Assembly (NCBI GenBank): GCA_029261035.1
Contig: JAJDCD010000025.1
Location: 130,926 to 194,925 of the forward strand
Origin: Candidatus Omnitrophota bacterium
GTDB lineage: Bacteria; Omnitrophota; Omnitrophia; Omnitrophales; JACROU01
Direction: 5' to 3'
Length of the DNA stretch: 64,000 nt
The translations under genes were made by a program, and so were the position numbers. Position 1 is the stretch's first letter, and every line of letters begins with the position of its first letter. Shown here in pieces: positions 7,446 to 59,171 of this stretch. Under the pieces are notes generated by a model that was not told the DNA's origin, searched no databases, and was given only the letters and a program-made list of their open reading frames with translations.

Positions 7446-7530
7446 GAAGTCGGAAGTCAGAAGTCGGAAGTCAGAAAAGTTCTGATGTCCGCCTTCTGTC
7501 GTCTGACCTCTGCTTTCTGACCTCAGAGGA
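7446..7530. repeat. Heptad tandem/inverted repeat array (GAAGTCN x4 then TTCTGAC-like units)
   Basis: agaagtcggaagtcagaagtcggaagtcagaa | aag | ttctgatgtccgccttctgtcgtctgacctctgctttctgacc forms an imperfect long hairpin centred on cagaa-aag-ttctg. It lies in the 5' leader of dinB inside the lexA operon. Confidence 0.6.
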
Positions 7531-7536
7531 CAAGGG

Positions 7537-7806: not shown

Positions 7807-7865
7807 AATCTCTCCATTTGTTTTCCGTTATTGGCTAAGAACCAAAAACATTATTTGTTAATTTT

Positions 7866-8459: not shown

Positions 8460-8476
8460 AACAGTTCGAAGTATAC

Positions 8477-8490
8477 CGAACATATGTTCG
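8477..8490. promoter_or_regulatory. LexA operator (Cheo-box type CGAACATATGTTCG)
   Basis: Perfect palindrome cgaacatatgttcg about 18 nt upstream of the lexA start. It matches the GAAC-N4-GTTC consensus used by Gram-positive-type LexA. Confidence 0.7.
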
Positions 8491-8671
8491 GTTTACAAGT
8501 ATTATTTTATCTTTTTTTTATAGCATCTTAAGTTGTTTCTATTAAATAAGTTACAGTTGTAGTAATTATAAGCAAATAAACAATTGAATTGTCGAAGTGT
8601 AGGAAGAAACAATAAAAGACAAAGATAATCATGACTATCTGTCCGCTGTCTTCTGATATAATGCCTCTCCT

Positions 8672-9175
8672 ATGAAACATTTAATACTCTCTTTTTTAAT
8701 TCTATGTTCGCTCGTCTTAGGAATCCCTTCTCTTCATTCCGAGGTTCCTCTTACCGTCAAATCCAAGAGCCCTGCTCCCCCATCCGAGTTTGTTGTTGAA
8801 GCCATTATTGACGTGAATATTTTAAAAAGCGCTGCAGGCCCTTCCATTCGAATGCTGGGAGTTGAAGCCACTCGCAATATTGAAGCTAAAAGAAAGGGGA
8901 TGGAATATTTAGAAACAAATATAAAGGGGAAAACATTCACATTAGAATATGACAAAAAAACGAAAGACCCTATGGGAAGGTTTTTAGCTTACGTCTATTT
9001 CGAAGATGGAAACATGCTAAACGAAGAAGTTCTCTGGAGAGGTTACGGATACGCTTCCAAAAAGTATCCCTGCAAATACATCTACAAATTCCGCCGCTAC
9101 GAAAACGACGCCAAAAGAAAAAACCACGGCCTCTGGAAAAAACTAACCAAACCAGGTGAGACAAAAGACAAATAA
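8672..9175 (+). CDS. Secreted thermonuclease (SNase-like) family protein
   Basis: Signal peptide, then SNase-fold motifs ...IRMLGVEA...GRFLAYVYFEDGNMLNEEVLWRGYGYA. Confidence 0.65.
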   Translation: MKHLILSFLILCSLVLGIPSLHSEVPLTVKSKSPAPPSEFVVEAIIDVNILKSAAGPSIRMLGVEATRNIEAKRKGMEYLETNIKGKTFTLEYDKKTKDPMGRFLAYVYFEDGNMLNEEVLWRGYGYASKKYPCKYIYKFRRYENDAKRKNHGLWKKLTKPGETKDK

Positions 9176-9188
9176 CACGTCTTTACCC

Positions 9189-9225
9189 ATAATAAAATAA
9201 GTGCTCGATGCACTTCTTTTATTAT
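9189..9225. repeat. R2 hairpin repeat copy
   Basis: ataataaaatAAGTGCtcgatGCACTTcttttattat. Same core as 3205-3237 with a different, compensating outer stem. Confidence 0.7.
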
Positions 9226-9257
9226 CTCCCTTCTCCCCACCCAAGTCTACACAAACA

Positions 9258-9336
9258 AGAAAAAGGGAATGCCTCCACTGCGAGTTGCGGAGGCCTTTGG
9301 CCGAGCATGTCTGAGCAGTGGAGGCATTCCCTTTTT
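9258..9336. terminator. R3 repeat copy acting as a bidirectional intrinsic terminator
   Basis: Perfect 22-bp outer stem gaaaaagggaatgcctccactg/cagtggaggcattccctttttc encloses GCGAGTT...TGTCTGAGC. T-runs flank it on both strands, between convergent genes 8672-9175 (+) and 9375-10559 (-). Confidence 0.65.
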
Positions 9337-9374
9337 CGCCACAACTTATAATCTTTTCTACTCACCTTAACAAA

Positions 9375-10559
9375 CTACTTCTTAACCACCTCAACCGTAC
9401 TCCTAGAAGTAAACTGATACTCAATCCCTCTCCAAGTCATCTTTCGAGCAAAAGCAGGAATAATAAAACTTCCAATCGCAAGCACTTGAGTCGCCAAAGC
9501 CAAAACAGGATACCAAATTGTAATCTCACCTATCGTAGGAACTTCCTCTTTAAGACCATCATCAATCGCTTTCTTCAATAAAAGTGTGTTCACAACAGAC
9601 ATATAAACAGGAGACAAAAATAACCAATGCCTCCAATCTAAAGTACCTTGCTGAGCAGCCATAACAAATACGACAGGACTCACCAACATAAACACAATTC
9701 GAGCAATAAACATCAAAGAAACCCCAGTCCACTTCTCTGGGAAATAAACGCGAGAAAGCAAAGACTGCCGATTGGCCCATTTAATAAAATCAATAAAACG
9801 AGTCCCCTCGTAGATAGGTACGATGTTCTGAGGAACAAAGTAATTCTCAAGCCCTGTTGGTTTTAATGCCATACTCAATGTTAAATCATCCGTAAGCGCT
9901 GTCTTCCATATCTCTCTTACATTAAACTCTTCAAAGTGTTTCTTACAGACAGCCATAGCACCCCCATAACACCCTCTAAAACGCTTTACTGTCACAAAGG
10001 CACCTAACCCTGACATCCAGGTAGACTTCACCAAAGACCAGAAAGTCTTCTTTAAAGGAACGTAAACAGGAATACCCGTCGTTATTCCAACATGATCATA
10101 TTGAAGAGGAGCAATTAGGCTTTTAATCCATAAAGGTTGAGGAGATGTATCCGAATCCATAAAAACTAAAACCTCAGACTTATCTCGAACAACTTCCGTC
10201 GCACGAACCAAATTATTAAGTTTCCCAGTATTTGTTACAGGATGTCCCGCAACCACAATTTGAGTCGGTATATCCAAATGAGCACTTGTTAATTCTTGAA
10301 GACGCTCATACGCAGGATCTTCTACTGTTGCTACAGCAAAAACAATTTCATAATCAGGATAATCCTGATTCAATATCGATTTGATGCTCTTATCAAAATT
10401 AGGATCTATCCCCTTGCAAGGAATAATAACGGAAAGAGGAGGGAAATAATCAGGGTGTTTAATTTTAAGTCTTTTTTCCGTCACCCAAAAAAAGTTGAAA
10501 ATAAAAAAGAATTGAAACAAAGTTAAAGTAACACAAACCACGGTTAGTATTTCAAACAT
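9375..10559 (-). CDS. Membrane glycosyltransferase, GT2/GT21 (ceramide-glucosyltransferase-like) family
   Basis: N-terminal TM, then VIIPCKGIDPNFDKSI...MDSDTSPQP (DxD) and C-terminal TM helices. Confidence 0.55.
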   Translation of the reverse strand: MFEILTVVCVTLTLFQFFFIFNFFWVTEKRLKIKHPDYFPPLSVIIPCKGIDPNFDKSIKSILNQDYPDYEIVFAVATVEDPAYERLQELTSAHLDIPTQIVVAGHPVTNTGKLNNLVRATEVVRDKSEVLVFMDSDTSPQPLWIKSLIAPLQYDHVGITTGIPVYVPLKKTFWSLVKSTWMSGLGAFVTVKRFRGCYGGAMAVCKKHFEEFNVREIWKTALTDDLTLSMALKPTGLENYFVPQNIVPIYEGTRFIDFIKWANRQSLLSRVYFPEKWTGVSLMFIARIVFMLVSPVVFVMAAQQGTLDWRHWLFLSPVYMSVVNTLLLKKAIDDGLKEEVPTIGEITIWYPVLALATQVLAIGSFIIPAFARKMTWRGIEYQFTSRSTVEVVKK

Positions 10560-45526: not shown

Positions 45527-45979
45527 ATGTTTAAAGCCATTATGAAAACAAATGATAATGATTTTACGAGTTTAATTTTACGTCTCTCCCTTGGGGTCGT
45601 TATGTTCCCACACGGGGCTCAAAAAGCTGTTGGTTGGTATGGTGGAAACGGTTTCGAAGCAACGATGAATTTTTTCACAACACAACTCAGCATCCCTCCT
45701 TATTTAGCAGTTCTTGTTATAGCAGCTGAGTTTCTCGGAGCACTAGGATTAATTGTAGGCTTCTTATCTCGAATTGCCGCCTTAGGTATAGGAATAACGA
45801 TGACTGTAGCAGCTCTCATGTTTCATGCTCAACATGGCTTTTTTATGAATTGGTTTGGAAATCAAAAAGGCGAAGGAATTGAATATCATATCTTAGCCGC
45901 TGCTATATCTTTAGCCATCGTTATTCGTGGGTCTGGTTTTGGATCTTTAGACTCTATATTTTCTAAAAACAATCGTTAA
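45527..45979 (+). CDS. DoxX-family membrane protein
   Basis: 150 aa with 4 TM helices. The MFPHGAQKAVGWYG pattern fits DoxX. Confidence 0.55.
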   Translation: MFKAIMKTNDNDFTSLILRLSLGVVMFPHGAQKAVGWYGGNGFEATMNFFTTQLSIPPYLAVLVIAAEFLGALGLIVGFLSRIAALGIGITMTVAALMFHAQHGFFMNWFGNQKGEGIEYHILAAAISLAIVIRGSGFGSLDSIFSKNNR

Positions 45980-45999
45980 TTGCTTCCAGGGAGTTGATA

Positions 46000-47256
46000 T
46001 TACTCAACTCCCTTACTTTTTAATCGATTCCGAACTCCTTGAGCGACTAAATAACCACTAGACCAAGCCCACTGAAAGTTAAAACCTCCAATCCTTCCAT
46101 CAACATCTAAAATTTCCCCTGAAAAAAAGAGCCCTTCTTGCCGAAAGGATTCTAATAACTTAGCGTTTACCTCATCTAAACAAACTCCCCCAGCCGTAAC
46201 TTCGGCCTTAGAGTAACCAACAACACCCTCAGGCCGAAACTCATACGCAAAGAGTCCTTGAATTAAATTATTCTTGTTCTGCTTCGATAATTGATTGAGT
46301 ATCTTATTTTTTTCCAAACTGATTTTTTTCAATAAAACATCCACGAATCGTTCCGGAAATATCTCAGACAGAAATCGTCTCACATTCTTTTTTGGAAATT
46401 TTAAAATTGCTTTTTCCAACCTCTGTTTCCATTCTTCAGAATTGTGATCTGGCAAAAAATTAGCCAATATCTTCACCTTTCCAATCTTCCTCAACCTTTC
46501 CCAATCTCTACTTATATTTAACACGGTCGGACCACTCAACCCTGTGTGGGTAAATAAAAACCCATCCTTAAAGCTCTTCTTTTTTTTACCATCAACCCAC
46601 AAAGTTAATTCACAAGTAAAAGATATACCCGACAAAGAATTCCAATCAGAGTCCTTTAAGTTCAATGGAGTCAATGCCGGTGAAGTCTCCACTAAATTGT
46701 GCCCAAAAGACTGTGCCAACTGATACCCGCTCCCATCACTTCCCGTAGTAGGATGAGAAAGTCCTCCCGTTGAGAGAACTACCGTTTTTGCATAGAGAGA
46801 AAAACCCTCCCCCTTTACCAAAAAAAGATTATTTAAAAAACACAAACTATTCACTTTATGGTTATTTTTAATAGGAATTTTCTTTTTAGAACATTCTTGA
46901 ACGAGTGCATTTAAAACGGTTCTTGCAGAATGAGTCGAAGGAAAGAGTTTTCCTGTATCCTCCACAACCAGATTAACTCCAATATCCTGAAAGAAATCTT
47001 TGGTTTTCTCTTGAGAATAGTTCTTTAGAACATTACGAACAAAACGAGGATGGGATGTTCCGTAATCCTTTTCTGTAACAACAACATGTGTCACATTACA
47101 ACGGTTCCCTCCAGACATTAAAATTTTTGCTCCAATTTTATTTTTACTGTCCAAAAGAACTACGTTTACAGAATGGTTAGCACATTGAATTGCTGTCATC
47201 AGACCTGCTGCACCGGCACCAACAACAATACAATCATAGATAGGTTCTTGTTTCAT
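46000..47256 (-). CDS. HI0933/BaiN-like NAD(FAD)-utilising flavoprotein
   Basis: YDCIVVGAGAAGLMTAI...GGNRCNVTH, then the HI0933 fold. Confidence 0.7.
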   Translation of the reverse strand: MKQEPIYDCIVVGAGAAGLMTAIQCANHSVNVVLLDSKNKIGAKILMSGGNRCNVTHVVVTEKDYGTSHPRFVRNVLKNYSQEKTKDFFQDIGVNLVVEDTGKLFPSTHSARTVLNALVQECSKKKIPIKNNHKVNSLCFLNNLFLVKGEGFSLYAKTVVLSTGGLSHPTTGSDGSGYQLAQSFGHNLVETSPALTPLNLKDSDWNSLSGISFTCELTLWVDGKKKKSFKDGFLFTHTGLSGPTVLNISRDWERLRKIGKVKILANFLPDHNSEEWKQRLEKAILKFPKKNVRRFLSEIFPERFVDVLLKKISLEKNKILNQLSKQNKNNLIQGLFAYEFRPEGVVGYSKAEVTAGGVCLDEVNAKLLESFRQEGLFFSGEILDVDGRIGGFNFQWAWSSGYLVAQGVRNRLKSKGVE

Positions 47257-47285
47257 AAAGGATCATTAGAAGCTAAGATTAGCTA

Positions 47286-47642
47286 CTACGCCCCTATTTC
47301 CTGGAAAGTTTTATGAAGTTGTTCTAAATCTAGAGGTTTAATCAAGTATTGTTCCACACCCAAACTCATTGCTTGCTGCAACATATCTTCATTGTCTACA
47401 GCTGACAACATAATTACTTTAACATCTCGCCATTTTTGTTTAACTTCTCTTAAAAGTTCAATTCCATTCATTCCGGGCATTTTAATATCAAAAACACATA
47501 AGTCAGGTTGCTTCTTGTCTAAAAAGACCAGCGCCTCTTCAGCCGAGAGAACAAAATCAACTTGATAATTTCTTTCTTCCAAAAACCCTTTAAGAAAATC
47601 ACAAATTTCTTCTTCGTCATCAACTAGCAATACATGTTTCAT
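47286..47642 (-). CDS. Stand-alone CheY-like response-regulator receiver
   Basis: 118 aa with LLVDDEEE, D in DIKMPGMNG and IKP. No output domain. Confidence 0.8.
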   Translation of the reverse strand: MKHVLLVDDEEEICDFLKGFLEERNYQVDFVLSAEEALVFLDKKQPDLCVFDIKMPGMNGIELLREVKQKWRDVKVIMLSAVDNEDMLQQAMSLGVEQYLIKPLDLEQLHKTFQEIGA

Positions 47643-48061
47643 AAATCTCCTTCAAATGTTTTTTTTCGATTAAGAACCAAAATCGTATCATAATCTCTAA
47701 GCAAATAAAGCGTTAAACAAGCTGCCAACATCGGAAATGCAGTAAAAAACAAAAGATGAATCTCAACATAAGGGGTTAAATATTGTTTAAATGTGGAAAT
47801 TGTAGATATGAAGTGCAACAACAAGACTAATCCATAAGAGTATTTCTTAGCTATTCCAAAAAGAAAAAGAAAGCAAAGCATCAATTCCAAAGCCCCCACG
47901 ACATACACCAAATTCAAGGCTAAATTAGGAAGTGAATAAAATGTCTTAAATACGGCTGCAGCATGATCAGGACGGAAAAACTTATCTAAACTCCACAATA
48001 AAAAAACAATAAAAACAGTCATCCGAATACTAAATAAAGCTACAGATAGTTTTTTATTCAA
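47639..48061 (-). CDS. Small membrane protein (4 TM)
   Basis: 140 aa, hydrophobic. Overlaps the receiver gene by 4 nt. Confidence 0.35.
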   Translation of the reverse strand: MNKKLSVALFSIRMTVFIVFLLWSLDKFFRPDHAAAVFKTFYSLPNLALNLVYVVGALELMLCFLFLFGIAKKYSYGLVLLLHFISTISTFKQYLTPYVEIHLLFFTAFPMLAACLTLYLLRDYDTILVLNRKKTFEGDL

Positions 48062-48076
48062 AAAAAATTCCTTCCT

Positions 48077-50317
48077 CTATTCTAAACCTTTGTTTTTTCT
48101 AATAAACCAATCTAATGTTAATAAAAATAAAATCAATCCTAAAATCCACCATTGATTCCAAAAAGGTTTTGAAGCTTCTCTTAAATGAACTAATCTTAAT
48201 TGGCTTAGAGCTTGTTCAAATCGACTCATCTCTGAAAAATCAAGGTATTGTCCCTCTGTAGTTTTAGCCAAAGACTTCAGTAAAACCTCATCTTTTTCCA
48301 TATGTAAAATTTCTAAGCGCGAAGCCTGCACAGAAAAGTGTTTTTCAATAATCTGCGGAACTGAATTTGGTTTTAAATAATGAACTCGAAACAAATAATC
48401 CCCTTCAGACAACCCATCAAATTGTTGCTTAATTTCCTGATCTACTTCTAGCACGCTATATTCTTTAATGCTTAAACGTTCTTCTCCTTTAAATAGTTCT
48501 AAATGTAAACGTGTATTATCCGACCTACCTTCATTTTCGGGCAAAATCAGGGAAACATTTAAATCTCTCGACTCCTCAACAAAAGCAGGGAATAATTGTA
48601 TTTGGATAGGATTTATTTTTTTCTTAAGTCTATTTTCCGTCAACCATTTAGTCGTATTAATCCAGAACTCAGAGAACAACCATTCTTCTTGATTACCTTG
48701 CCAATCTTGAAACCACTGCCCCCAGTTGTAAGTAACATCTGAAGTAAATGCTAATACTTTTCCATTTCCATAGTTTTGTGAAGCTAAAATAACTCTAGGC
48801 CCAAAGGTACTTAAGTCCTCTGGATGTTTTAAAATAGAGGTTGCAGCTGGTTTTAGGCGTCCCACATAGTTATAACCACCTAAATCAGGAACGCTCCCCC
48901 ACAAAGCTTCATTCTCACTCTCATTATCTACTAATTGAAGAATCGGATGATCATAAGCACCTTCAGAAATGACCGGTTTAAATTTATTCTCCACTGTACC
49001 TTGAGCTCTCAAAAAGATATCTTTTTTATATTCTTCACTAATTTCAACAGGTAGCATTTTTTCAATTTCTGTACCCAAATAACCACCATCTCCAAATGAG
49101 TCAACGCCTCCGATCATCACCAAAGCCCCTCCCTCATTTTTAACCAAAGCCTCAATCCATTGAATTTGCTCATCTGTTAACAAACTACGTTTAACATCAC
49201 TTAAAATCACAACATCATATTGAAATAATTCCTGTTTTGATTTTGGAAAACCATATAAAGGATCTTTGATAAATGGAACAGCTTCTTGCTTAGCAAAACC
49301 CTGCAAACTAGAAGCAAAAGTCACTTGAATATTAGGATCCTTCTCTAGGGCTATTTTAAATTTATTTTCATCTTTATAAAAAGATTCTATGTAGAAAACA
49401 TTTATCAACCTTTTACGCGCCTCTAACCAAACCCTCATATTATTATCTTCGTCGGTCGCCTCACCCTCTAAAGAAATTAGTTTTAAATCAATGTAATGGA
49501 CTCCAGGGTCTAAGATCGACAAATCAAGCTCCTTTGATTCAGAACTTAAATCAACTTCTTGCTCCAACTTCAAACTGCCATCAACATATAATTCTAAACG
49601 AGTTGCATTAGCGGATGGAGACACCGAAGACCAAAGTGTTTTTACTGGAAATATTTCGTCAATAAAAACAAAGTCAGGAACCACAACCTCTTGTATCGAA
49701 GTATTAGAAACAGCCTCTTTATCCCCCATGCCAATAGCAACCCAAGGAAAAGATAATTCAGAAAAAATAGTTTCTTTGTCTTTAAATAAATCTGTTGCAT
49801 TCCCATCACTAAACAAAACCCATCCTAATAATTCAGAGTCATCTGAGTACAAACGATCTATTTGTTTTAAAGCAGAAATAAGATTAGACTCACTGCCCTG
49901 AACACCCAACAAAGTCAAGTTATCCTGTTTTTTAGTTTTAATATCAAAAGAGTAAAGAGCAGTCTCTTCTTTATTAAGCATTTTCCGCCAATAATCATCT
50001 TCTTGAAAATAGTTCCTAAGCAAACCAACTCGAGACGTCCCCTCTCCCTTATCTACCACACCCATACTAGAGGAAGTATCCACCAATACTCCAACCCACT
50101 CTTTATCTCTTTCCTGATTCCAGTAAGGATCTAAAATCAGAAACACAATGAGAGCCAAAACAGATACTCTCAAAAAACCTAGAAAAATACGTGTACTTAG
50201 ACTCACAGGGACTGAAAAGCGTAAATACGCAAAAAACAACACCACACATAAGCCCAAAATAAGCAAAGTTAAAGTTACGGGTGGTAACATATTTATATAT
50301 TTAAAATCTTCTATCAT
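48077..50317 (-). CDS. Membrane vWA-domain protein with GATase1-like (DUF1355-type) domain, BatA/B-like
   Basis: 2 N-terminal TM helices, MIDAS motif VLVDTSSSMG, later GGALVMIGGVDSFGDGGY and a C-terminal TM. Confidence 0.5.
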   Translation of the reverse strand: MIEDFKYINMLPPVTLTLLILGLCVVLFFAYLRFSVPVSLSTRIFLGFLRVSVLALIVFLILDPYWNQERDKEWVGVLVDTSSSMGVVDKGEGTSRVGLLRNYFQEDDYWRKMLNKEETALYSFDIKTKKQDNLTLLGVQGSESNLISALKQIDRLYSDDSELLGWVLFSDGNATDLFKDKETIFSELSFPWVAIGMGDKEAVSNTSIQEVVVPDFVFIDEIFPVKTLWSSVSPSANATRLELYVDGSLKLEQEVDLSSESKELDLSILDPGVHYIDLKLISLEGEATDEDNNMRVWLEARKRLINVFYIESFYKDENKFKIALEKDPNIQVTFASSLQGFAKQEAVPFIKDPLYGFPKSKQELFQYDVVILSDVKRSLLTDEQIQWIEALVKNEGGALVMIGGVDSFGDGGYLGTEIEKMLPVEISEEYKKDIFLRAQGTVENKFKPVISEGAYDHPILQLVDNESENEALWGSVPDLGGYNYVGRLKPAATSILKHPEDLSTFGPRVILASQNYGNGKVLAFTSDVTYNWGQWFQDWQGNQEEWLFSEFWINTTKWLTENRLKKKINPIQIQLFPAFVEESRDLNVSLILPENEGRSDNTRLHLELFKGEERLSIKEYSVLEVDQEIKQQFDGLSEGDYLFRVHYLKPNSVPQIIEKHFSVQASRLEILHMEKDEVLLKSLAKTTEGQYLDFSEMSRFEQALSQLRLVHLREASKPFWNQWWILGLILFLLTLDWFIRKNKGLE

Positions 50318-50326
50318 AATTCTATT

Positions 50327-52318
50327 TTAACTTTCTGATAATAGTTGAAAATACTTAGAAACAGCAGAACGATAAACCGTTGGAATGTTCTGATCTTCGC
50401 CCGCTCGATAAATTGAAACTTGTTTTTCTATTAAATCAATTTGAGGCTCCACGCTTTCAAGCTCATTTAAAAGTTCTTCGTACGTCACAGAAGCAGACTC
50501 GTAATCTGTGTACTCTCCTAAATTCAAGACGTCTAAAAGTCGGGTTGCTAATTCGGATAACTTTCTCAACTCCATCACAAACTGATCTTGAGTATTCAAA
50601 ACACCTATCTGTCTTTTGATTTCTTCAAGCTGAAATATAAACTGTTTTTGTTTTAAAATAAAATACTCTACTGTTGGATTTGGGTTTTCGAATTGACGTA
50701 AAGGTTTGAATTTTTTAACCTCATTAATAAACATCTTTTCTTGTAACATCCATTCTCTCAAATCACTTAAACTCTCTTCCAATTCTAATTCCATCTTCAC
50801 ATCTCTTTGATTATCTTCATTTGGAAGAGTTTGTTCTTCAAGCTGTTGAGAACTCCCCTGCACGCCCCCTTCTAGTTCTTTGACTACTCCCATAACTTGA
50901 CTAGAACCAGCAGAGCCTCCCAAAGAACCTTCCAAATCTGATGCAGACGCCTTTCCCTGTGAGTCAGAAGATCCCTCACTTCCTTGCCCTAAAGACTCGG
51001 ACACAGAGTCTCCAGATCCAGAATCGTCTCCTCGCCCATCTCCTAAATCAGCCCCCAGCTCCTTAGCTTTTTGTTCTGATTTTTCTGCCAACTCGGATAA
51101 ATCTTTACTATCTCCCCCCTCACCACCAGGAGACACTCCTCCTTGAACTAAAATATTGTCATCATCCCCAGAATCTGCCGCATCACTTCCTTGTTGTCCC
51201 ATTTCTGAAATACTATTTTCTTCAGAACCTTCCTCACCTTCCCCTCCAGATTTCGATTGAGCCTCACCTTTCCCCTGAATCCCTTCCGCCCCGCTACCTT
51301 CACCCATTCCTCCATCGCCATCGAGACCTTCATCCTGTCCTTCAGGCGCTTGAGCTTCTTCTGAAACAGCTAACTCAACACCCTCACCTTCACCTTGAGC
51401 CAGATCCTTTTCTTTCCCATCAGATGAACCAGCTTCTCCTCCGGTAGCTCCTGAGGCTGCATCTTCTGCATCCACAGCTTCTTCAACATCCGCTCCACCT
51501 TCACCTTGAACCGATTCTGAAGCTACTTCGTCCGAAGATCCCTCTCTGTTTTTTGAATCCAACTGCTCTAAAGACTGCCCCTCTTCTTCTTGATCTGTTG
51601 CTTTTTTATCTTCACCTTCTGCTTCAAGCTCAATTTCAGCATCTTCTGCTTTAGAAGCCTTTTCTTCAAGATCTTCCTGCTCCTCTAAATCAGATGAACC
51701 TTCATTCAAATCCATAGGCAAATCTTCTTCTGCTGACTTGGCAGGATCTCCTTCGGTCATAGGAAAATCCGCCCCCAACTCATCTTGAGTTTTAGATTCA
51801 AAAAGAGCAACCTCATCTCCCACAGCCTTTTCTTCTTTAGGAAATTTTCCTGGCGCTGTTTTCTTATCAAAATAAGAGCCAATCAAAGCACTTTCTCTTG
51901 GAACTGCTTTTTCATCCCAAAAATGTATTTCGCCGGTCAATGTTAAAGACATTCCTGAAAAGAAAGCCGCCTGTTCTTGGAAAGATTTAGACAAATCTTT
52001 CTCTTCCAAAAATTGCAAAGAAAAAGAAAGCTTTTCTCTATATGACTGAATCTGCTCAAAAGCCTCTGGCTCGTCCTCTATCAAATCTTGCCTTTCTTCC
52101 TGGATGTATTCAATTATCTTATCCACCTTTTCCAAAACCCTTTTTTGTTCTAATTTCAACTTATTCACCTGCCCCGCAGACTCCAACACCTCAAAGGAAT
52201 CTTCTAAAAACGTTGGGAGCACTGCTTCTTCAGCAAATAACGTTCCAAGAAAACCCGTAGCTGTAACGACTGCAGTAAGTATGAATAATTGTTTAAAATA
52301 CTTCATTGCTATAAACAC
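50327..52318 (-). CDS. Secreted coiled-coil protein with ~300-aa highly acidic, Gly/Ser/Glu/Asp-rich disordered region
   Basis: 663 aa. Signal peptide, N- and C-terminal coiled-coil segments and a central low-complexity acidic tract (EGEGEEGSEENS...). No family. Confidence 0.4.
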   Translation of the reverse strand: MFIAMKYFKQLFILTAVVTATGFLGTLFAEEAVLPTFLEDSFEVLESAGQVNKLKLEQKRVLEKVDKIIEYIQEERQDLIEDEPEAFEQIQSYREKLSFSLQFLEEKDLSKSFQEQAAFFSGMSLTLTGEIHFWDEKAVPRESALIGSYFDKKTAPGKFPKEEKAVGDEVALFESKTQDELGADFPMTEGDPAKSAEEDLPMDLNEGSSDLEEQEDLEEKASKAEDAEIELEAEGEDKKATDQEEEGQSLEQLDSKNREGSSDEVASESVQGEGGADVEEAVDAEDAASGATGGEAGSSDGKEKDLAQGEGEGVELAVSEEAQAPEGQDEGLDGDGGMGEGSGAEGIQGKGEAQSKSGGEGEEGSEENSISEMGQQGSDAADSGDDDNILVQGGVSPGGEGGDSKDLSELAEKSEQKAKELGADLGDGRGDDSGSGDSVSESLGQGSEGSSDSQGKASASDLEGSLGGSAGSSQVMGVVKELEGGVQGSSQQLEEQTLPNEDNQRDVKMELELEESLSDLREWMLQEKMFINEVKKFKPLRQFENPNPTVEYFILKQKQFIFQLEEIKRQIGVLNTQDQFVMELRKLSELATRLLDVLNLGEYTDYESASVTYEELLNELESVEPQIDLIEKQVSIYRAGEDQNIPTVYRSAVSKYFQLLSES

Positions 52319-52320
52319 CC

Positions 52321-54084
52321 TTAAGCCTTACTTGATTCAAATTGTTGTTTATTCCAAGCTTTTAATGTTTCAACCGGAACACTAGAAATATAATCCCAAG
52401 TGTCCTCTAGTAATTTCTCTTGATCCAACATTACATCTTCAAATAAAATTCTGTAAGTTGATTGCTTTAACTCTTTATCCGCTTCTCTATACTCTTCCTC
52501 AGTATTTCGTATTAAAAAACTAAAATAAGGAGATCTAACAATATTAGAAACTTGGTCAAAATACCGATCACGAACTTCAATATATACAAAAACCAAATCA
52601 CTTCCTGACAAACCCAAAGGTTCTATTTCTAATATTGGGTTAAGCGTAATCTCGGTAACCGTATCTCCTTTAGGAACAAGCCCTACACGTTGCTCTTTTC
52701 CTTTATACAAAATAACCATTTCCACAGAATCCACCCCGTAATCGTCACTAATAAAAATCTCAAAAGGAACGGAGTCGTCTGTGTTTACATAATTTTTTAA
52801 TTGAGGTTCCTTCACATCTAAAAATGGGGGTAAATCCGGTAAGGTTTGTATCCAAACCGATGAAACATCTAACAAAGGATTTCCATTCACATCTTGAATA
52901 TCCAAACTAATAAAAGCATCTCGCGTTGCAATGAATGAAGTTTCCAGAAACTGACTTATTTCGTTCAGCATCAAAGGAATCTGTCTTCCCGACTCAGACT
53001 TGACAAAAGCACTGCCTACTGGCTGGTTGAAATTAACAGAAAGAGTTATTTTAGTTCCTTTTGGAACTGTTAACTTATCCTTCCAACCTTCTTTAATTTG
53101 ATCAGATAAATTCGTATTTTTAGGATATTCCAGTTTCCAAAATACACGATTCATCGTTAAAGATTCATATAGCTCAATATTAAACTTTGCAGATGTTTGA
53201 TGATCCGCCTTTATGTAGTAGGTACTTTCGCGAGACACTCTAGACAATAAATAGACATACTGACCCTCCCCAACAGAACTCATTGGAACAACTCGCCATG
53301 CAGGATCATCCTTTTCACGGAAACAAAGCAGAACCTGCTCGGGCTTGTAATCTAATATGCGAGCCTTAATAAAAAGATTACTTTTTCTTGGAATCTCACA
53401 ATCACCTGGGTTTACTTGAATTTCAAAAGAGGGTAAGTTTTCTGCTGCCAACATGGCTTCATCAGAAACATTGGTTTTAATCACAAAAGACTCGCCTGTC
53501 AACCTTTCCCAACTCGTCTTAAAAAATGAAGGATCTACTTTCCAATGAACAAAACCTCCTACCCCTATAAAAAAAATAAATAAAAGCGGTAAAACAACTC
53601 GTCTGGGTGCAACTGCTTTAGAAAAATCAAAGCGGTCTAAGATACCAACCATCTTCCCCTGAAGACCTACAGCTAAGGCCTGACTAAAAGCATCTTTATT
53701 TAATTTTTTACGCTTCTTAGAAAACTCGAGTGCCGAGGTGAGCCGCCCTGCTAAACTCGGATAATTTTTTTCCAACGTCACCGCTAGACGCCCCGGATTC
53801 CTTCGATTAGTAACATAGCTTACAAAAGCAAAGAAAAGAGGAACCCCTATCAAAGAAGCAAGCAAAGCTTCTTTAGGAATGTAAACAGGTATTACATCTG
53901 GATAAAAATAGGTTGTAACCAATAACAAATACATACAAACAACCAAAAAAACCAGAGTGTAAAGACACACACAAAAGGCCTCAAAAAAAACGACCCCCCA
54001 AGTTCTTCTTTTTAAAATATTTTCAAACGAAGCTGAACTCATTTCATTAAACCCATGTTGTTTTATAAAGACGATTTGCCACAA
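52321..54084 (-). CDS. Hypothetical polytopic membrane protein of the Bat-like cluster
   Basis: 587 aa with N-terminal TM helices and a large soluble domain. No family recognised. Confidence 0.35.
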   Translation of the reverse strand: MWQIVFIKQHGFNEMSSASFENILKRRTWGVVFFEAFCVCLYTLVFLVVCMYLLLVTTYFYPDVIPVYIPKEALLASLIGVPLFFAFVSYVTNRRNPGRLAVTLEKNYPSLAGRLTSALEFSKKRKKLNKDAFSQALAVGLQGKMVGILDRFDFSKAVAPRRVVLPLLFIFFIGVGGFVHWKVDPSFFKTSWERLTGESFVIKTNVSDEAMLAAENLPSFEIQVNPGDCEIPRKSNLFIKARILDYKPEQVLLCFREKDDPAWRVVPMSSVGEGQYVYLLSRVSRESTYYIKADHQTSAKFNIELYESLTMNRVFWKLEYPKNTNLSDQIKEGWKDKLTVPKGTKITLSVNFNQPVGSAFVKSESGRQIPLMLNEISQFLETSFIATRDAFISLDIQDVNGNPLLDVSSVWIQTLPDLPPFLDVKEPQLKNYVNTDDSVPFEIFISDDYGVDSVEMVILYKGKEQRVGLVPKGDTVTEITLNPILEIEPLGLSGSDLVFVYIEVRDRYFDQVSNIVRSPYFSFLIRNTEEEYREADKELKQSTYRILFEDVMLDQEKLLEDTWDYISSVPVETLKAWNKQQFESSKA

Positions 54085-56170
54085 ATGCTTCTAGTAAGAA
54101 CAAAACTAAAAGAGTGTACAGCAAAGGTAAATAAACAAATTTACGGTGTTCTTTTAAATCCAAACTTTTTGTTCCTGTAGCTAAAACTTCCCGCTCTTCG
54201 TTAGAAGCTGCTAGCTGAATGTATCGAACTTGAGATTCTTTTGCATCGCTATTAATAGCAACCCTTCTTCTAACTTTGGTATTATCAGGTAAAATACCTG
54301 CCCACTCGTAGATACCTAATCCATTAGTTGAAAATGACGACGAACCTATCTGCCTATCATTATATAAAGTAATTTGCTCTCCATCAGGAGAACGAATTAA
54401 AATTCGATCAAAAACTTGATCTTTGGACTCTCCTTCAAAATGTATCAGATCTCCTACTTTCAAATTTGAGCCAACCCCTTTAATCGGTTGATTTACATAT
54501 TTAAATAACTCAAATAAAAAAGGAACGTATAAAGGATTTTTTGGAAAATCATTCCATTTCTGATTTAAGGTCGAACACCAAATAAAGACACGCCCTTTTT
54601 CCAATGTTCTTTCAACAAGCAATGGCCATTGATCATCTAACCACAATAAGATTTGATTGTTCTGATCGGGCAACTGTAAAAAAGGAGCTAATTTCCAAAA
54701 AGAGACCTGATTTAACTTCCCCTGCTCCCCTAATTGAAAAACACGGAACAAAGGGTGTTCATAATCTATACTTTGAATAGAAAACGCCTTTTCTTTTCCT
54801 TTTTCCTTTTCTTTCAACGAAGAAAAATACCCGCCTAAAAGCTCTGTTAAGTATGGATTTTTTGAAGTGTTTTCTAGGCGAACACGATCTCCTAAAGAGT
54901 AGATAACATTCCCCCCAGAACGAACATAATATTTGAGCTGCGTTACCTGCTTTGGAGTTAATTCAGCTGTATCGGCGATCATAACAACACCATAATCGCT
55001 CAATTGAAACTTATCCATATTTTCTAATTGAATGGAGTTCATATCTACCCAAGAAGCTTTATTGTCTTCTTTAAAACTCTGAAAGACTTTCGTTACATAA
55101 AAGTAAGGATTATCAAAAGGATAAACATAATTCTCATCCTGGACTAAAAGAATATTTAAACGTGGCTGAACCTTAGCTATTGCAAACCTCTTATTATCGA
55201 TACTTAAGTTATCCCCACTCACCTTTACATGGATCGGAAATTCTCCCTGTGCAGGAAATGAATGATTAAACACGACTGCATTTCTTCCAAAACGAGTCAG
55301 CTCTATTTCCTTAGAAGCAACCATCGTTTCATCTACCCAAAAACTAAAATCTAAACGCGTTCCCAAAGGTAACCCAGAATTACGATACACAACTTTAATA
55401 TCTTCTTTAATGTTTGGCAAGAAAGGTTTGACCGGAAAAATCACATCTTCAATAAACACATTTTGATACTCCGAAGGTCTGACTTGCATCAAATTAATTT
55501 TCAACCCATCGGATTTCATCTCGTCCTCAAAATTAAGATGAAGCTCTTCATCTAGAATAGAAAAATCGGACACTATATTAATCTCTGTCTTAGCCCATTC
55601 CTGTTGAGGAACCAAACTACTTACTTCTTGAGTCAACCGTTCAAAATTAGATGAAAAATCGGACAAAGAAATGTTTTCTAAAGCATAAAATAATTGATCT
55701 TTTTCATCTGTCTTTAAAATCTCAGAATATATATTTTGATTAAAAACATACAAAGAATACAAAGGACTTTTGACTTTATCTTGATTAATCTGCTTTACAA
55801 TCCTCTCCTTCGCCTTTTCAAAGAGAGACTGGCCATCTTCTGAATAGCCCATACTATAAGAGTCATCCAGTATAAAAATAGAGTGCTTATCAGATTTCGC
55901 CTGAAGCAAATCAGATCTTTGTATAATAAAAGGTAACGTGAAAACCAAAACCAGCAATGCCAAAATAAGCAAACGAAGAATCAGTAGAAATAATTTCTTC
56001 CACTCAATCGTATTATAAGAACGCTTAGATATTTCAGCAAGAAACTCCACAGAACTAAAACTTGTTGTCTTCAAAGTTTTTGCTTTCGTCAACAAAAGTA
56101 AAAATGGAATAATAAGGGCCAGTAAACCCCAAAAAAATATAGGTGTTACAAAATTTAAAAATTCCATCAA
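54047..56170 (-). CDS. BatA-N-terminal-domain / vWA membrane protein
   Basis: N-terminus MMEFLNFVTPIFFWGLLALIIPFLLL...TSFSSVEFL is typical of the aerotolerance-regulator N-domain. MIDAS FILDDSYSMG. C-terminal TM. Confidence 0.55.
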   Translation of the reverse strand: MMEFLNFVTPIFFWGLLALIIPFLLLLTKAKTLKTTSFSSVEFLAEISKRSYNTIEWKKLFLLILRLLILALLVLVFTLPFIIQRSDLLQAKSDKHSIFILDDSYSMGYSEDGQSLFEKAKERIVKQINQDKVKSPLYSLYVFNQNIYSEILKTDEKDQLFYALENISLSDFSSNFERLTQEVSSLVPQQEWAKTEINIVSDFSILDEELHLNFEDEMKSDGLKINLMQVRPSEYQNVFIEDVIFPVKPFLPNIKEDIKVVYRNSGLPLGTRLDFSFWVDETMVASKEIELTRFGRNAVVFNHSFPAQGEFPIHVKVSGDNLSIDNKRFAIAKVQPRLNILLVQDENYVYPFDNPYFYVTKVFQSFKEDNKASWVDMNSIQLENMDKFQLSDYGVVMIADTAELTPKQVTQLKYYVRSGGNVIYSLGDRVRLENTSKNPYLTELLGGYFSSLKEKEKGKEKAFSIQSIDYEHPLFRVFQLGEQGKLNQVSFWKLAPFLQLPDQNNQILLWLDDQWPLLVERTLEKGRVFIWCSTLNQKWNDFPKNPLYVPFLFELFKYVNQPIKGVGSNLKVGDLIHFEGESKDQVFDRILIRSPDGEQITLYNDRQIGSSSFSTNGLGIYEWAGILPDNTKVRRRVAINSDAKESQVRYIQLAASNEEREVLATGTKSLDLKEHRKFVYLPLLYTLLVLFLLEAFVANRLYKTTWV

Positions 56171-57075
56171 TTCATCTTCTCTCTCGTTTGAAGAAATACC
56201 CTTAACGCCTGATCAAAGGACGTTGTTGTTTCCAACATTTTATAAGTCACTTTCAATTTATGACATATTTGCTGAATCTGATCTAAGTATTTTTTCATCT
56301 GCTCAACATATTCTTCTTTGAAATAATTAGGTTGCATCAAAATGCGATCTTTTGTTTCTAAATCTTCAAAAAACCCAAACTTTTCAAATGGAAATTTAAG
56401 CTCTTCTTCACTCAACACTTGAAACACAATTAGCTCGTTCTTCTTATGCATGAAATGTTTTAACGTTTGCTCTATATGTTCAGGGTTCGCTAATAAGTCT
56501 GAAAAAAGAATAATAAGACTTCTTTTCTTGATTCGATTAGCTACTAATTTTGCAGAATCATTAAAGTGAGACTTACCACCTTCTTTTAAATGTTTAAACT
56601 CCTTTAGCAAACGACCCAATTGTTGATGAGAGGAGCTGGGATTAATTATTTTTCGAATCTTTCCGTCAAAAAGAATAACTCCAACCATATCTCTTTGCTT
56701 TAACAACATGTAAGATAATGCCGCTGCAATATAAGAAGCATACTCTCTTTTACTCATGGCTATCTTATCGCCGGAATAGCTCATAGACTTACTGATATCA
56801 ATAACAATCCAAGCTTGAAGGTTTGTTTCTTCTTCAAACTGTTTTACAAAATAACGATCTGTCTTTCCAAACAATTTCCAATCAACTAACTTTAAAGGAT
56901 CTCCAGGGTAATAATCACGGTGCTTACTGTAGTCTAGTGAAACGGTATGACGCGGCCCTTTATGAAATCCCATAAAAAACCCGTCTATAATCAACCGAGC
57001 CAATAATTTATAATCAGAAATTGCAGAAATTACTTTAGGATCAAGAAATTTCTTACTTTCTTTAAAAGAAACCAC
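56167..57075 (-). CDS. DUF58-family protein (MoxR partner)
   Basis: 302 aa containing ...DWKLFGKTDRYFVKQFEEETNLQAWIVIDIS.S... It lies immediately downstream of moxR. Confidence 0.7.
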   Translation of the reverse strand: MVSFKESKKFLDPKVISAISDYKLLARLIIDGFFMGFHKGPRHTVSLDYSKHRDYYPGDPLKLVDWKLFGKTDRYFVKQFEEETNLQAWIVIDISKSMSYSGDKIAMSKREYASYIAAALSYMLLKQRDMVGVILFDGKIRKIINPSSSHQQLGRLLKEFKHLKEGGKSHFNDSAKLVANRIKKRSLIILFSDLLANPEHIEQTLKHFMHKKNELIVFQVLSEEELKFPFEKFGFFEDLETKDRILMQPNYFKEEYVEQMKKYLDQIQQICHKLKVTYKMLETTTSFDQALRVFLQTREKMN

Positions 57076-57092
57076 TCTAGAAGCTCCAATAA

Positions 57093-58151
57093 TTACTTTT
57101 TATGCTCAGGAACAGCATCCAATATCTTCCGAACAATTTCCATGGATGTTATTCCTTCTGCATCAGCAGAAAAGTTAACCTTGATTCGGTGTCTAAGAAC
57201 AGAAGATGCAACAGCTCGTACATCTTCCGTTGAAACACAAAAATTTCCTTTAATTAATGCCCGTGCTTTTGCCGCTAACACCAAATTTAAAGAAGCTCTA
57301 GGACCCGCCCCCCACTCAACCCAATCATTAACAAAATCATACTTGTTTTCCTTAGAAGGACGTGTAGCAACAATAATATCAACAGCATAACGAAGCACAG
57401 AGTCAGAAATGAGCATTGCTCTTACCAGTTGCTGCAAATCAAGAATATCTTCTTTTGTAATAGTCTCTCTCACCTTACTCGTACTCGATTGAGTATACTT
57501 TTGAGTAATTTTCACTTCTTCATCATATTTTGGATAGTCAATAAACACATTAAACATAAAACGATCTAACTGAGCTTCAGGTAAAGAATAGACCCCTTCT
57601 TGATCAATTGGATTTTGTGTTGCCACTACAAAAAAAGGTTCTTCCAAAGAATAAGTTGTGTTTCCAACAGAAACTTCTTTATCTTGCATGGCTTGAAGAA
57701 GAGCTGATTGTGTCTTGGGAGAAGTTCTGTTAATTTCATCAGCCAAAAGAAAGTGACAAAAAATAGGCCCTTTTAAAAACTTCAAAATTCGTTGATTTGT
57801 CTCAGGATCTTCTTGAATAATTTCTGTTCCGATAATATCAGAGGGCATCAGGTCTGGGGTAAATTGAACCTGCTTAAAATTTAAGTTCATAATTCTAGAT
57901 AAGGTTCTGAAAATAAGGGTTTTTCCTAAACCTGGAACCCCCTCTAGAAGAACATTTCCTTTACATAAAATACAAATAATAATTAAATCGATAATTTCTT
58001 GTTGACCCACAATAACTCTGCCCATTTCCTGGCGAAGCTCATTATAAAATACTTTAATTTTATCGATGACTTCCTGGCCAGCTTCAGCAGAATCAGCTCC
58101 TTTAGAAAGTATAAATAATCTTTTTTTCTCTTCTTTGGAATCAGACATCAA
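57093..58151 (-). CDS. MoxR-family AAA+ ATPase
   Basis: Walker A GVPGLGKT, then FTPDLMPSDIIG, and ATQNP...QLDRF. Confidence 0.85.
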   Translation of the reverse strand: MMSDSKEEKKRLFILSKGADSAEAGQEVIDKIKVFYNELRQEMGRVIVGQQEIIDLIIICILCKGNVLLEGVPGLGKTLIFRTLSRIMNLNFKQVQFTPDLMPSDIIGTEIIQEDPETNQRILKFLKGPIFCHFLLADEINRTSPKTQSALLQAMQDKEVSVGNTTYSLEEPFFVVATQNPIDQEGVYSLPEAQLDRFMFNVFIDYPKYDEEVKITQKYTQSSTSKVRETITKEDILDLQQLVRAMLISDSVLRYAVDIIVATRPSKENKYDFVNDWVEWGAGPRASLNLVLAAKARALIKGNFCVSTEDVRAVASSVLRHRIKVNFSADAEGITSMEIVRKILDAVPEHKK

Positions 58152-58424
58152 AACACCCTCTTAAAATCGGTAACTTCAGTTATAAAAAATAGTTACACAG
58201 CATACTCAAACAGACGCATTTTACAGGTAAAAGCACCCTAACGCAACCAACAGTATATCTCAAAGAATAGCTTACTTCCTATAGAGGGGTATTTACTTGG
58301 CGCTCTTCGGTCACGTATCTAGTGTGCCGGGTCAAAAACCTGAGACACCATAGTCATAAATATAATATTTATTTATATTTTTATTAAATATTATTTAAAT
58401 ATTGGGGTGATTTAAAGTTTTTAC

Positions 58425-59171
58425 TCATTCACTTGAGGGGTCTTGAGGAACCAAAGGAACAAATCGTACAGGAAGGATTACTTTCTTTTTGACCTGATCT
58501 AGAGTCTTGGTCACTAAAATTAACTGCTGTCTCACATCCCCTACAGGAATAACCATCTTCCCACCCTTATCACTTAATTGCTCAATTAACGCCTCCGGAA
58601 TTTCTTCGGGTGCTGCCGTCACAATAATGGCATCAAATGGCTGCTCTTCAGGCCAGCCCTTATAACCATCACCTACTAAAATAGAAATATTTTTATATCC
58701 CATGGAGCTTAATAATGCTTCAGCATTTTTTGCTAATTCGGGAATAATCTCCATAGAATAAACGCGCTCAACAATCTCTGCAAGTACAGCCGCTTGATAA
58801 CCAGACCCCGTTCCAATTTCCAAAACTCTATCCGTGGGTTTCAGATCCAAAACTTGAGTCATCAGAGCAACAATATACGGCTGAGAAATCGTTTGTTCAT
58901 AACCTATCGAAAGAGGACCATCTATATAAGCCATTGATCTAAAAGATTCAGGAACAAACAAATGTCTCTGAACTACCTTCATCGCTTCCAAAACCCTTTC
59001 ATCACTTATGCCTCTTTCTTTTAAATGTTTCTTTAGCATGACTTTTCTCTCTTTATTTAACTGTTTACCCAAGTCAGGGTCGGCAGCAATAAAATCTTGC
59101 GTTTTAAAAGCAGCAAGGCCTGCAACAAAAATAAATACAACAATGACACCTAAAACTATTTTTTTCATCAC
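58425..59171 (-). CDS. pcm: Protein-L-isoaspartate O-methyltransferase with N-terminal signal/TM
   Basis: SIGYEQTISQPYIVALM...VLEIGTGSGYQAAVLA. The hydrophobic N-terminus is MMKKIVLGVIVVFIFVAGLAAF. Confidence 0.8.
   Translation of the reverse strand: MMKKIVLGVIVVFIFVAGLAAFKTQDFIAADPDLGKQLNKERKVMLKKHLKERGISDERVLEAMKVVQRHLFVPESFRSMAYIDGPLSIGYEQTISQPYIVALMTQVLDLKPTDRVLEIGTGSGYQAAVLAEIVERVYSMEIIPELAKNAEALLSSMGYKNISILVGDGYKGWPEEQPFDAIIVTAAPEEIPEALIEQLSDKGGKMVIPVGDVRQQLILVTKTLDQVKKKVILPVRFVPLVPQDPSSE

Follow-up and report, generated by a model that had tools for sequence, protein, structure and literature searches.

The 64,000-nucleotide stretch of Candidatus Omnitrophota contig JAJDCD010000025.1 analyzed here (the window, to which all coordinates without a locus label refer) carries a run of nine minus-strand open reading frames (ORFs) that begins with genes for a MoxR-type ATPase, a DUF58 protein, and a BatA-like protein. 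These three genes, two further genes termed gene 4 and gene 5, and a gene for a GATase1-like membrane protein lie at 48077-58151 (minus strand) and very probably act as a functional unit. Taking the observations together, the best overall explanation, to which we assign a probability of roughly 0.6, is a six-gene MoxR envelope module in which a DUF4175-type protein is split between genes 4 and 5 and which operates by the mechanism proposed below. An earlier reading of the sequence (the original prediction) had described all nine genes as one operon with a giant acidic secreted protein and a built-in receiver. The three genes that follow the unit, encoding a DoxX/MauE-like protein, a receiver, and a flavoprotein, are probably local passengers, co-transcribed with the module only in this genome.

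Six Genes Are Syntenic in Orthologous Loci

Domains were assigned with Pfam and NCBIfam profiles over all nine proteins. The genes of the unit, together with two parts of gene 5, are the following (TM, transmembrane).

57093-58151, minus strand: MoxR-type AAA+ ATPase, 352 aa (AAA_3, 194 bits, plus AAA_lid_2)
56167-57075, minus strand: DUF58 vWA-like protein, 302 aa (DUF58, 127 bits; VWA_2, 45.6 bits)
54047-56170, minus strand: BatA-like 2TM/vWA protein, 707 aa (BatA / TIGR02226, 48 bits)
52321-54084, minus strand: gene 4, likely N-terminal half of a DUF4175-type protein, 587/573 aa (DUF4175, 19.9 bits, sub-threshold)
50327-52306, minus strand: gene 5 (the "acidic protein"), likely C-terminal half of a DUF4175-type protein, 659 aa (no family match)
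50765-51787, minus strand: polyanionic disordered linker of gene 5, 341 aa (by composition)
50330-50392, minus strand: C-terminal tail motif of gene 5, QNIPTVYRSAVSKYFQLLSES (consensus IPxxYRxxVxxYFxxL, then an acidic end)
48077-50317, minus strand: GATase1-like (PF07090) membrane protein, 746 aa (GATase1_like, 48.5 bits)

Homologues of the 746-aa GATase1-like protein were used to locate loci in genomes and metagenomes; an earlier scan of genome contigs with a gene-4 alignment had returned no loci, and the GATase1-like alignment succeeded. ORFs were called in 94 loci and then searched with the window proteins (phmmer), yielding 12 full and partial orthologous loci, among which two pairs share one source each and L003 is the same as L007. 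The order MoxR-DUF58-BatA-gene 4-gene 5-GATase1-like, on one strand, was identical in the seven independent full loci (L003 (= L007), L005, L008, L009, L013, L016, and L017) and in the five partial ones. Against the window proteins, phmmer E values ranged between 1e-112 and 1e-224 for the five folded proteins, and the gene-5 C-domain gave 1e-35 to 1e-44. L007 and L011 belong to Candidatus Omnitrophota metagenome-assembled genomes and were matched at 46-47% identity. Because seven other full loci repeat the order of the first six genes, this arrangement is far beyond chance, and this synteny bears out the earlier view that MoxR, DUF58, and vWA proteins form a real envelope-directed module here.

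The genes behind the unit behaved differently. In none of the 12 orthologous loci, full or partial, did the 5 kb around the core contain a homologue of the DoxX/MauE-like protein, the flavoprotein, or the protein-L-isoaspartate O-methyltransferase (PCMT). Receivers near orthologous cores were of the generic kind only and lay 3-6 kb away, in other orientations and unrelated contexts, and the downstream neighbors varied between sources (for example, L003 has a DLH hydrolase there and L005 a T2SSE ATPase). Since the synteny is limited to six genes, the receiver falls outside the conserved unit. The nine-gene operon of the original prediction is therefore conserved in its first six genes, whereas its last three have no homologue beside orthologous cores. 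The cluster had also been called unusual for its size; orthologous clusters were equal or larger.

Genes 4 and 5 Are Probably the Products of a Gene Fission

Gene 5 had been read as a 663-aa protein. The gene is present, but its product is most likely 659 aa long and starts at the ATG at 52306, because the exact 659-aa product occurs in an independent Logan assembly (on a 2.9-kb contig), the only product recovered by exact-sequence look-ups of window proteins. It consists of a Sec signal peptide, an N-domain of about 150 aa, a linker, and a C-domain of about 140 aa, both domains being helical, with an isoelectric point of 4.1 for the whole protein. The signal peptide, N-domain, and C-domain are conserved across 15 aligned sequences, which establishes the acidic ORF as a genuine, conserved gene. 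Orthologues of gene 5 are 909-1456 aa long, all carry a signal peptide, and have C-domains 32-42% identical to that of the window. In an exhaustive HMMER search of 1.84 billion representative proteins, the C-domain was found in just 18 clusters and always at the C-terminus; its AlphaFold model was all-helical and poor (predicted local distance difference test, pLDDT, 53).

The linker is the variable part of gene 5. In the window it comprises 341 aa with 28.7% Asp+Glu, 39% Gly+Ser+Ala, and a net charge of -78, whereas the orthologous linkers comprise 589-1136 aa, mostly Gly, Ser, and Ala, with 10-15% Asp+Glu. Over the whole range (341-1136 aa, 10.5-28.7% Asp+Glu), the window linker is both the shortest and the most acidic, and the net charge is negative in all eight linkers compared (the window and seven orthologues, -10 to -91). 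The extreme acidity reported earlier is thus real in the window, but orthologues do not share it. A search for DNA tandem repeats beneath the acidic tract of the window gave none. In L005 (5881-9996), a 1371-aa gene-5 orthologue contains many near-identical tandem repeats of about 50 aa (GAGTQKSAKADGMTKSGDGAGAGGSGDGSGGSGNASGDSRGAAAGNSGSGNA), implying that the linker grows by repeat amplification in some lineages. The low-complexity gene of L009 appears as two overlapping ORFs (5860-8919 and 8564-9985), probably owing to a frameshift or an assembly error in the repetitive linker. Window positions 51000-51999 have a GC content of 45% against a background of about 35%, with GC skew down to -0.42; this is the footprint of the Gly/Ala/Glu/Asp-rich linker, not foreign DNA.

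A hidden Markov model (HMM) of the gene-5 C-domain also gave weak matches (E 0.03-8), all of them on the last 25 or so residues of proteins encoded beside MoxR/DUF58 at distant loci. The regular expression P-x6-[VIM]-x2-Y-[FY]-x2-[LI] was searched in the six-frame ORFs of the 94 loci (1.03 M residues), where 44 matches lay no more than 20 aa from a C-terminus and a single one was internal. All 44 C-terminal matches were on the same strand as, and no more than 1.2 kb from, MoxR/DUF58/GATase1-like cluster genes. The tail is often followed by SEE, DEK, EPE, or DP; examples are L022:12418-15207, L039:5543-7015, L042:3570-5096, L054:6995-8530, L077:5412-6869, and L085:6136-7659, with about 35 more. 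To our knowledge, this strictly C-terminal tail motif has not been described.

The proteins that bear the tail are of two kinds. The first are bona fide DUF4175 proteins (L022, 57.9 bits against Pfam), and the second are proteins of about 490-650 aa without a Pfam match, which consist of a TM hairpin, a conserved cytoplasmic helix (e.g., AARLADRGYGLQDRISTALEW), a third TM segment, a coiled-coil plus Gly/Ser/acidic low-complexity region, and the tail. Gene 4 has the same N-terminal module, with LAVTLEKNYPSLAGRLTSALEF as its helix. An HMM of this gene-4 module matched the N-termini of tail-bearing proteins with E values of 2e-5 to 2e-2, and BLASTP aligned residues 73-560 of gene 4 with the first 540 or so residues of the fused 954-aa protein P0003 (7e-17). 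In addition, the gene-4 orthologue P0085 carries PF13779 (DUF4175), and the L005 orthologue has a weak DUF4175 match. For gene 4, the word-indexed protein search missed relatives: it returned six matches despite orthologues at 1e-127, and a query with the ectodomain only added six.

Gene 4 encodes 587 aa from a TTG start or 573 aa from the ATG at 54042, the latter being the NCBI product P0001. Its AlphaFold2 model (pLDDT 80) shows three TM helices and a cytoplasmic domain made up of helices, and then three beta-sandwich domains with a helix at the end. The "polytopic" protein of the original prediction is accordingly a membrane protein, but one whose three TM helices precede three beta-sandwich domains in the periplasm. 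Foldseek searches of the PDB with this model returned generic tandem immunoglobulin (Ig)/FN3-like folds only. From hydropathy and the positive-inside rule, the protein is predicted to be N-in, with a conserved cytoplasmic helical domain of about 70 aa (residues ~92-160) between TM2 and TM3 and a periplasmic body.

The complete DUF4175-type architecture (hairpin, helix, third TM segment, low-complexity ectodomain, and tail) is found in genes 4 and 5 only when they are taken jointly. The split is common to the clade of the window, and every C-terminal half has a signal peptide. As the N-terminal module and the tail reside in one polypeptide elsewhere and in adjacent genes here, gene fission is indicated, and we consider it likely, on the sequence evidence, that genes 4 and 5 arose by a clade-specific fission of a DUF4175-type gene. 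The acidic protein would then not be the extra novel component that it was taken for; it appears instead to be the detached C-terminal half of a regular DUF4175-type member.

The ATPase, Its Putative Adaptor, and Two Large vWA Membrane Proteins

The earlier domain calls (MoxR, DUF58, BatA, GATase1-like, receiver, and HI0933) were all reproduced with Pfam and NCBIfam. MoxR matched AAA_3 with 194 bits (cut-off 27) and AAA_lid_2 with 60.9 bits. In the window translation its Walker A motif is GVPGLGKT and its Walker B motif LLADEINR; Walker A is intact in the window protein and in the four orthologous MoxR proteins checked, and Walker B is intact in the window. MoxR orthologues (E 1e-152 to 1e-164) are encoded by the first gene in the seven full loci. 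The DUF58 protein matched PF01882 with 127 bits (cut-off 23.4), and its MIDAS motif (an adhesion site that depends on a metal ion), D-I-S-K-S, is kept in all eight loci (the window and the seven full orthologous loci). Hydropathy revealed no TM segment in MoxR or DUF58; both are predicted to be cytoplasmic, and by analogy with related systems DUF58 is the putative MoxR adaptor.

The 707-aa BatA-like protein matched the N-terminal 2TM region of BatA with 48.1 bits in both PF07584 (cut-off 25.9) and TIGR02226 (cut-off 23.05). Its VWA_2 score of 26.2 bits was just below the 27-bit cut-off, and a ThuA-like match was also sub-threshold. With TM segments at residues 8-26, 60-78, and 679-697 (hydropathy), it is built of an N-terminal double-TM hairpin, a vWA domain (MIDAS, DDSYS), a ThuA/GATase1-like region, and a C-terminal TM anchor. 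Its vWA domain is presumably periplasmic because the TM1-TM2 loop is rich in Lys and Arg (positive-inside rule). This agrees with BB0173, the Borrelia BatA homologue, whose vWA domain was found to be periplasmic by experiment (PMC5700661). A profile search of PDB sequences with the BatA-like protein or gene 4 returned nothing useful.

The 746-aa protein matched GATase1_like (PF07090) with 48.5 bits (cut-off 27), and its orthologues also carry PF07090. It comprises a double-TM hairpin, a vWA-like domain with a complete MIDAS, the GATase1-like domain, and a C-terminal hydrophobic anchor. The residues D80-x-S82-x-S84, D171, and T175 are invariant in 24 of 24 sequences (the window and 23 orthologues); the vWA assignment has a weak PDB VWA match as well, and more distant homologues carry PF00092. 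Within the GATase1-like domain, GGxDSFGDGGY, LGGYNYVGR, and H498 are invariant. The sole Cys of the protein is residue 24, within TM1, and there is no Cys among the invariant columns. Lacking a Cys nucleophile, and hence the Cys-His-Glu triad, the domain is not a class I glutamine amidotransferase. Its PDB relatives are 3SOZ, 2GK3, and 3RHT (E about 1e-11).

The segments from TM2 to the MIDAS of the BatA-like and GATase1-like proteins can be aligned with each other (E = 0.002). For both proteins the prediction is an N-out orientation in which the double-TM hairpin precedes a large body in the periplasm and the C-terminus is anchored again. BatA::GATase1-like fusions of 1459 aa were observed in L077 (7766-12142), L078, and L090 (7259-11635), where the tail-motif gene lies between MoxR and DUF58. 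Such a fusion, seen in one lineage, is a Rosetta-stone-type hint at joint action of the two large vWA proteins.

The association of these proteins extends beyond the orthologous loci. MoxR, DUF58, and a GATase1-like protein occur jointly in 38 non-redundant loci, of which 33 also have a DUF4175-like or tail-motif gene. These gene sets occur in at least six gene orders, of which MoxR-tail protein-DUF58-GATase1-like accounts for seven loci, some with the BatA::GATase1-like fusion. The retention of five protein types through shuffled orders is strong evidence for their joint function.

Local Layout, Passenger Genes, and Flanks

The remaining features of the gene run are the following.

58152-58424, minus strand: intergenic region 5' of MoxR, putative promoter region (273 nt, the only long non-coding gap in the gene run)
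47639-48061, minus strand: MauE/DoxX-like 4-TM protein, 140 aa (MauE, 27.9 bits; DoxX, 18 bits, sub-threshold)
47286-47642, minus strand: stand-alone receiver, 118 aa (Response_reg, 107.6 bits)
46000-47256, minus strand: HI0933 / aminoacetone-oxidase-family flavoprotein, 418 aa (HI0933_like / TIGR00275, 424 bits)

As originally described, the nine ORFs are all present and co-directional; the original description is corrected as to the strand, which is the minus strand. They lie head to tail at 46000-58151, with overlaps or with intergenic gaps of at most 29 nt. MoxR and DUF58 are 17 nt apart, and DUF58 and the BatA-like gene overlap by 4 nt. The BatA-like gene and gene 4 overlap by 38 nt with the TTG start or are 4 nt apart with the ATG start. 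The gap is 2-14 nt between genes 4 and 5, 9 nt between gene 5 and the GATase1-like gene, and 15 nt between the latter and the DoxX-like gene. The DoxX-like and receiver genes overlap by 4 nt, and the receiver and flavoprotein genes are 29 nt apart. The module promoter is tentatively placed at 58152-58424, a region in which promoter-like matches were no commoner than in shuffled sequence. Promoter and terminator scans gave background levels except for a hairpin at 45988-46013. This terminator-like hairpin lies at the stop codon of the flavoprotein gene, the last of the nine, and no other was found within the run before it.

On the far side of this hairpin, which it shares, a second DoxX-superfamily protein (clear DoxX) is encoded at 45527-45979 (plus strand), convergent with the flavoprotein gene. 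Two small DoxX-superfamily membrane proteins (45527-45979, plus; 47639-48061, minus) thus flank the receiver and flavoprotein genes, and the DoxX pair, the receiver, and the flavoprotein may form a small unit that is redox-related and separate from the MoxR module. At the other end, 5' of the module, a PCMT is encoded at 58425-59171 (minus strand). Its N-terminal hydrophobic segment, KIVLGVIVVFIFVAGLAAF, suggests a membrane-anchored or exported repair methyltransferase, which would be unusual for PCMT.

Proposed Mechanism and Alternative Explanations

By analogy with RavA-ViaA, CbbQ-CbbO, NorQ-NorD, and BchI-BchD, MoxR and DUF58 would form an ATP-driven chaperone/adaptor pair. Their client would be a membrane complex, and the likeliest point of contact would be the cytoplasmic domain of gene 4, because the membrane proteins have no other cytoplasmic part of notable size than these 70 or so residues. 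In the periplasm, the vWA and GATase1-like proteins would assemble into a scaffold together with the Ig-like stalk and the exported gene-5 protein. More speculatively, the conserved tail might dock onto a partner, with a periplasmic MIDAS site as a possible target, and the anionic linker, itself variable, might serve as a flexible spacer or brush. The expected role, by analogy with the RL3499-RL3502 genes of Rhizobium, would be in envelope integrity or homeostasis and not in oxygen detoxification, so that a fragile envelope would be the expected phenotype. An envelope scaffold assembled or remodelled by MoxR/DUF58 is, on balance, narrowly favored by these analogies, and docking of the tail to a MIDAS is a rather unlikely detail of it. 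A more specific version, in which the tail is a docking peptide for the periplasmic vWA/GATase1-like proteins and the module a periplasmic brush or spacer, anchored in the inner membrane and controlled by ATP, that owes its length to the fast-evolving linker, is a long shot.

Several points weigh against the split-DUF4175 module and its mechanism. Gene 4, at 19.9 bits, is under the Pfam DUF4175 (PF13779) cut-off of 27.3 bits, no match was obtained for gene 5, and TIGR02302 matches neither half (NCBIfam, E <=0.01). When the N- and C-domains of gene 5 were compared with the fused proteins by hhalign, only the terminal 20 or so residues were aligned, with probabilities of 2-14%. As there is no profile homology beyond these last residues, the argument for fission hangs on architecture, gene position, and the tail motif. 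The DxSxS MIDAS of the BatA-like protein is kept in five of the eight loci (the window and the seven full orthologous loci) and lost in three (L009:2008-4128, L013:1699-3819, and L017:2389-4506), which makes a MIDAS-centered model weaker for this protein. The mechanism itself is assembled from analogy and topology prediction. Finally, deletion of the bat genes in Leptospira biflexa caused no phenotype, including an oxidative one (PMC3557215), suggesting that the role of the family may be subtle or condition-specific.

Four other explanations were weighed. The original prediction suggested a MoxR-driven assembly of a metal- or cation-binding matrix in the periplasm. On this view the acidic protein would be the matrix and the very purpose of the system, and MoxR and the vWA proteins would load or organize it. 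The net negative charge of the linker in eight of eight proteins is consistent with this idea, and MIDAS and MoxR systems often handle metal ions (BchI/D, NorQ/D, and CoxD/E). However, the hypervariable composition of the linker weakens it: Asp+Glu ranges from 10.5 to 28.7%, length varies threefold, and most orthologous linkers are mainly Gly, Ser, and Ala. There is no conserved metal-binding motif in the linker, and fused family members have Gly/Gln-rich or coiled-coil regions in its place. It is the end domains and the tail that are conserved, which points to a tether more than to an ion exchanger, and we regard a metal-binding matrix as improbable.

Alternatively, MoxR and DUF58 could mature an enzyme, activating the GATase1-like proteins or loading a cofactor into them for a periplasmic hydrolytic or transfer reaction. 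Enzyme maturation is a classic MoxR role, and the GATase1-like domain is highly conserved in the invariant segments and H498 listed above. In contrast, the missing Cys nucleophile, the uncharacterized state of the PDB relatives, and the separation of cytoplasmic MoxR/DUF58 from a GATase1-like domain predicted to be periplasmic all argue against this explanation, leaving it with a low probability.

A single machine of all nine genes, in which the receiver feeds a phosphorelay into the MoxR complex, is very improbable. The co-directional genes with their short gaps or overlaps, the absence of a hairpin before 45988-46013, and the complete set of canonical phospho-acceptor residues in the receiver (D8/D9/D52/S80/K102) would fit it, and the Riemerella Bat operon is under two-component transcriptional control (PMC11834572). 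That control, however, acts through a DNA-binding regulator and not through a built-in receiver. No DoxX-like, receiver, or flavoprotein gene lies beside the core in any of the 12 orthologous loci, and the downstream genes vary by source. No histidine kinase was detected among the ten flanking window genes scanned, and these flanks consist of housekeeping genes. The receiver, which had been thought to imply phosphorelay input, is at most a local accident of this genome.

An MoxR-vWA conflict or anti-phage system is highly improbable: MoxR does match PF20030 bpMoxR with 45.8 bits, but this is a cross-match beside AAA_3 at 194 bits, there are no beta-propeller or effector domains, and the cluster is stably syntenic amid housekeeping genes. 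Membership in a defense system was rejected separately, as PADLOC gave no match to the core proteins apart from a marginal 17.8-bit match of DUF58.

Of the bacterial gene clusters that lack a mechanism, those of the MoxR/DUF58/BatA kind rank with the most widespread, a problem that the split-DUF4175 module sharpens rather than solves. The conserved component list is now defined and comprises five protein types that have stayed linked in at least six gene orders. The low-complexity protein belongs to the system as an integral component and is no oddity, and the natural fission would part a membrane/Ig half from a linker/tail half. The short, strictly C-terminal motif offers a handle for interaction mapping and mutagenesis in Rhizobium, Caulobacter, and Planctomycetes, and the receiver is removed as a misleading lead. 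If the long-shot version with a docking tail and a brush is true, the module would be a new kind of envelope-organizing device, present in Omnitrophota and, with other gene orders, in metagenomic lineages; it would plausibly also exist in the PVC (Planctomycetes-Verrucomicrobia-Chlamydiae) and alphaproteobacterial clusters of the family.

Comparison with Known Systems

The cluster of the window is a member of the widespread MoxR-proper/DUF58/BatA family, which lacks a known mechanism; the literature establishes no function for MoxR-DUF58-vWA modules, as the original prediction had noted. Specific to its clade are the split DUF4175-type gene and the narrowly distributed C-domain, and specific to this genome are the unusually short, acidic linker and the three passenger genes. 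A further architecture of the family, with DUF4159, was observed in L002 (3628-13770), where the order is MoxR-DUF58-BatA (245 aa)-404 aa-731 aa (GATase1-like by phmmer)-fused 954-aa DUF4175-like-DUF4159; the neighbor of this distant cluster, encoded on the other strand, is a PAS hybrid histidine kinase. A literature search for DUF4175, DUF4159, TIGR02226, and TIGR02302 returned incidental mentions only, and the substantive full-text matches for DUF4175 were limited to the unrelated Acinetobacter AdvA.

Among the closest known systems is RL3499-RL3502 of Rhizobium leguminosarum, an alphaproteobacterial cluster that we take to encode a MoxR-proper and a DUF58 protein, followed by large double-TM-anchored proteins and a DUF4175/TIGR02302-type low-complexity protein. 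The title of Vanderlinde et al. 2011 (J Bacteriol 193:2684) ties these genes to cell morphology and envelope integrity. By transposon sequencing, RL3499 and RL3500 mutants were growth-impaired on complex medium (PMC5118466). The window differs from it in having six genes, an extra PF07090 GATase1-like vWA protein, a split DUF4175-type gene, and another host lineage.

BatI of Bacteroides and the spirochaete bat loci resemble the window in the succession of MoxR, DUF58, and membrane proteins with a BatA N-terminus and vWA domain. The window is not a canonical BatI locus (batA-E): no TPR (BatC/BatE), BatD, or SH3 match was found in the nine window proteins (four large proteins at E <=10, the rest at E <=0.01). 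It has no detected second short vWA protein of the BatB type and contains DUF4175-type and GATase1-like components instead. In Riemerella, moxR and batA mutants showed mixed stress phenotypes, and the two-component system that controls transcription of the operon is PhoPR (PMC11834572). The "aerotolerance" label for Bat is weak, and that role is disputed in view of the Leptospira deletion.

Like genes 4 and 5, DUF4175/TIGR02302 proteins begin with a TM hairpin, after which come a cytoplasmic helix, a third TM segment, and a long extracytoplasmic coiled-coil and low-complexity region that ends in the same tail. In contrast to these proteins, the window uses two adjacent genes, the second half has its own signal peptide, and the linker is unusually acidic. 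The pairs RavA-ViaA, CbbQ-CbbO, NorQ-NorD, and BchI-BchD share with the window an MoxR AAA+ gene beside a MIDAS-bearing vWA partner, which favors joint action of ATPase and vWA adaptor on a client complex. The client in the window, judged from its sequence, apparently consists of membrane and periplasmic structural proteins and not of an identified enzyme. Lastly, the PF07090 proteins 3SOZ (STM1381), 2GK3, and 3RHT are soluble, uncharacterized structural-genomics proteins of about 250 aa, whereas in the window the corresponding domain sits between the vWA domain and the C-terminal anchor of a doubly anchored membrane protein.

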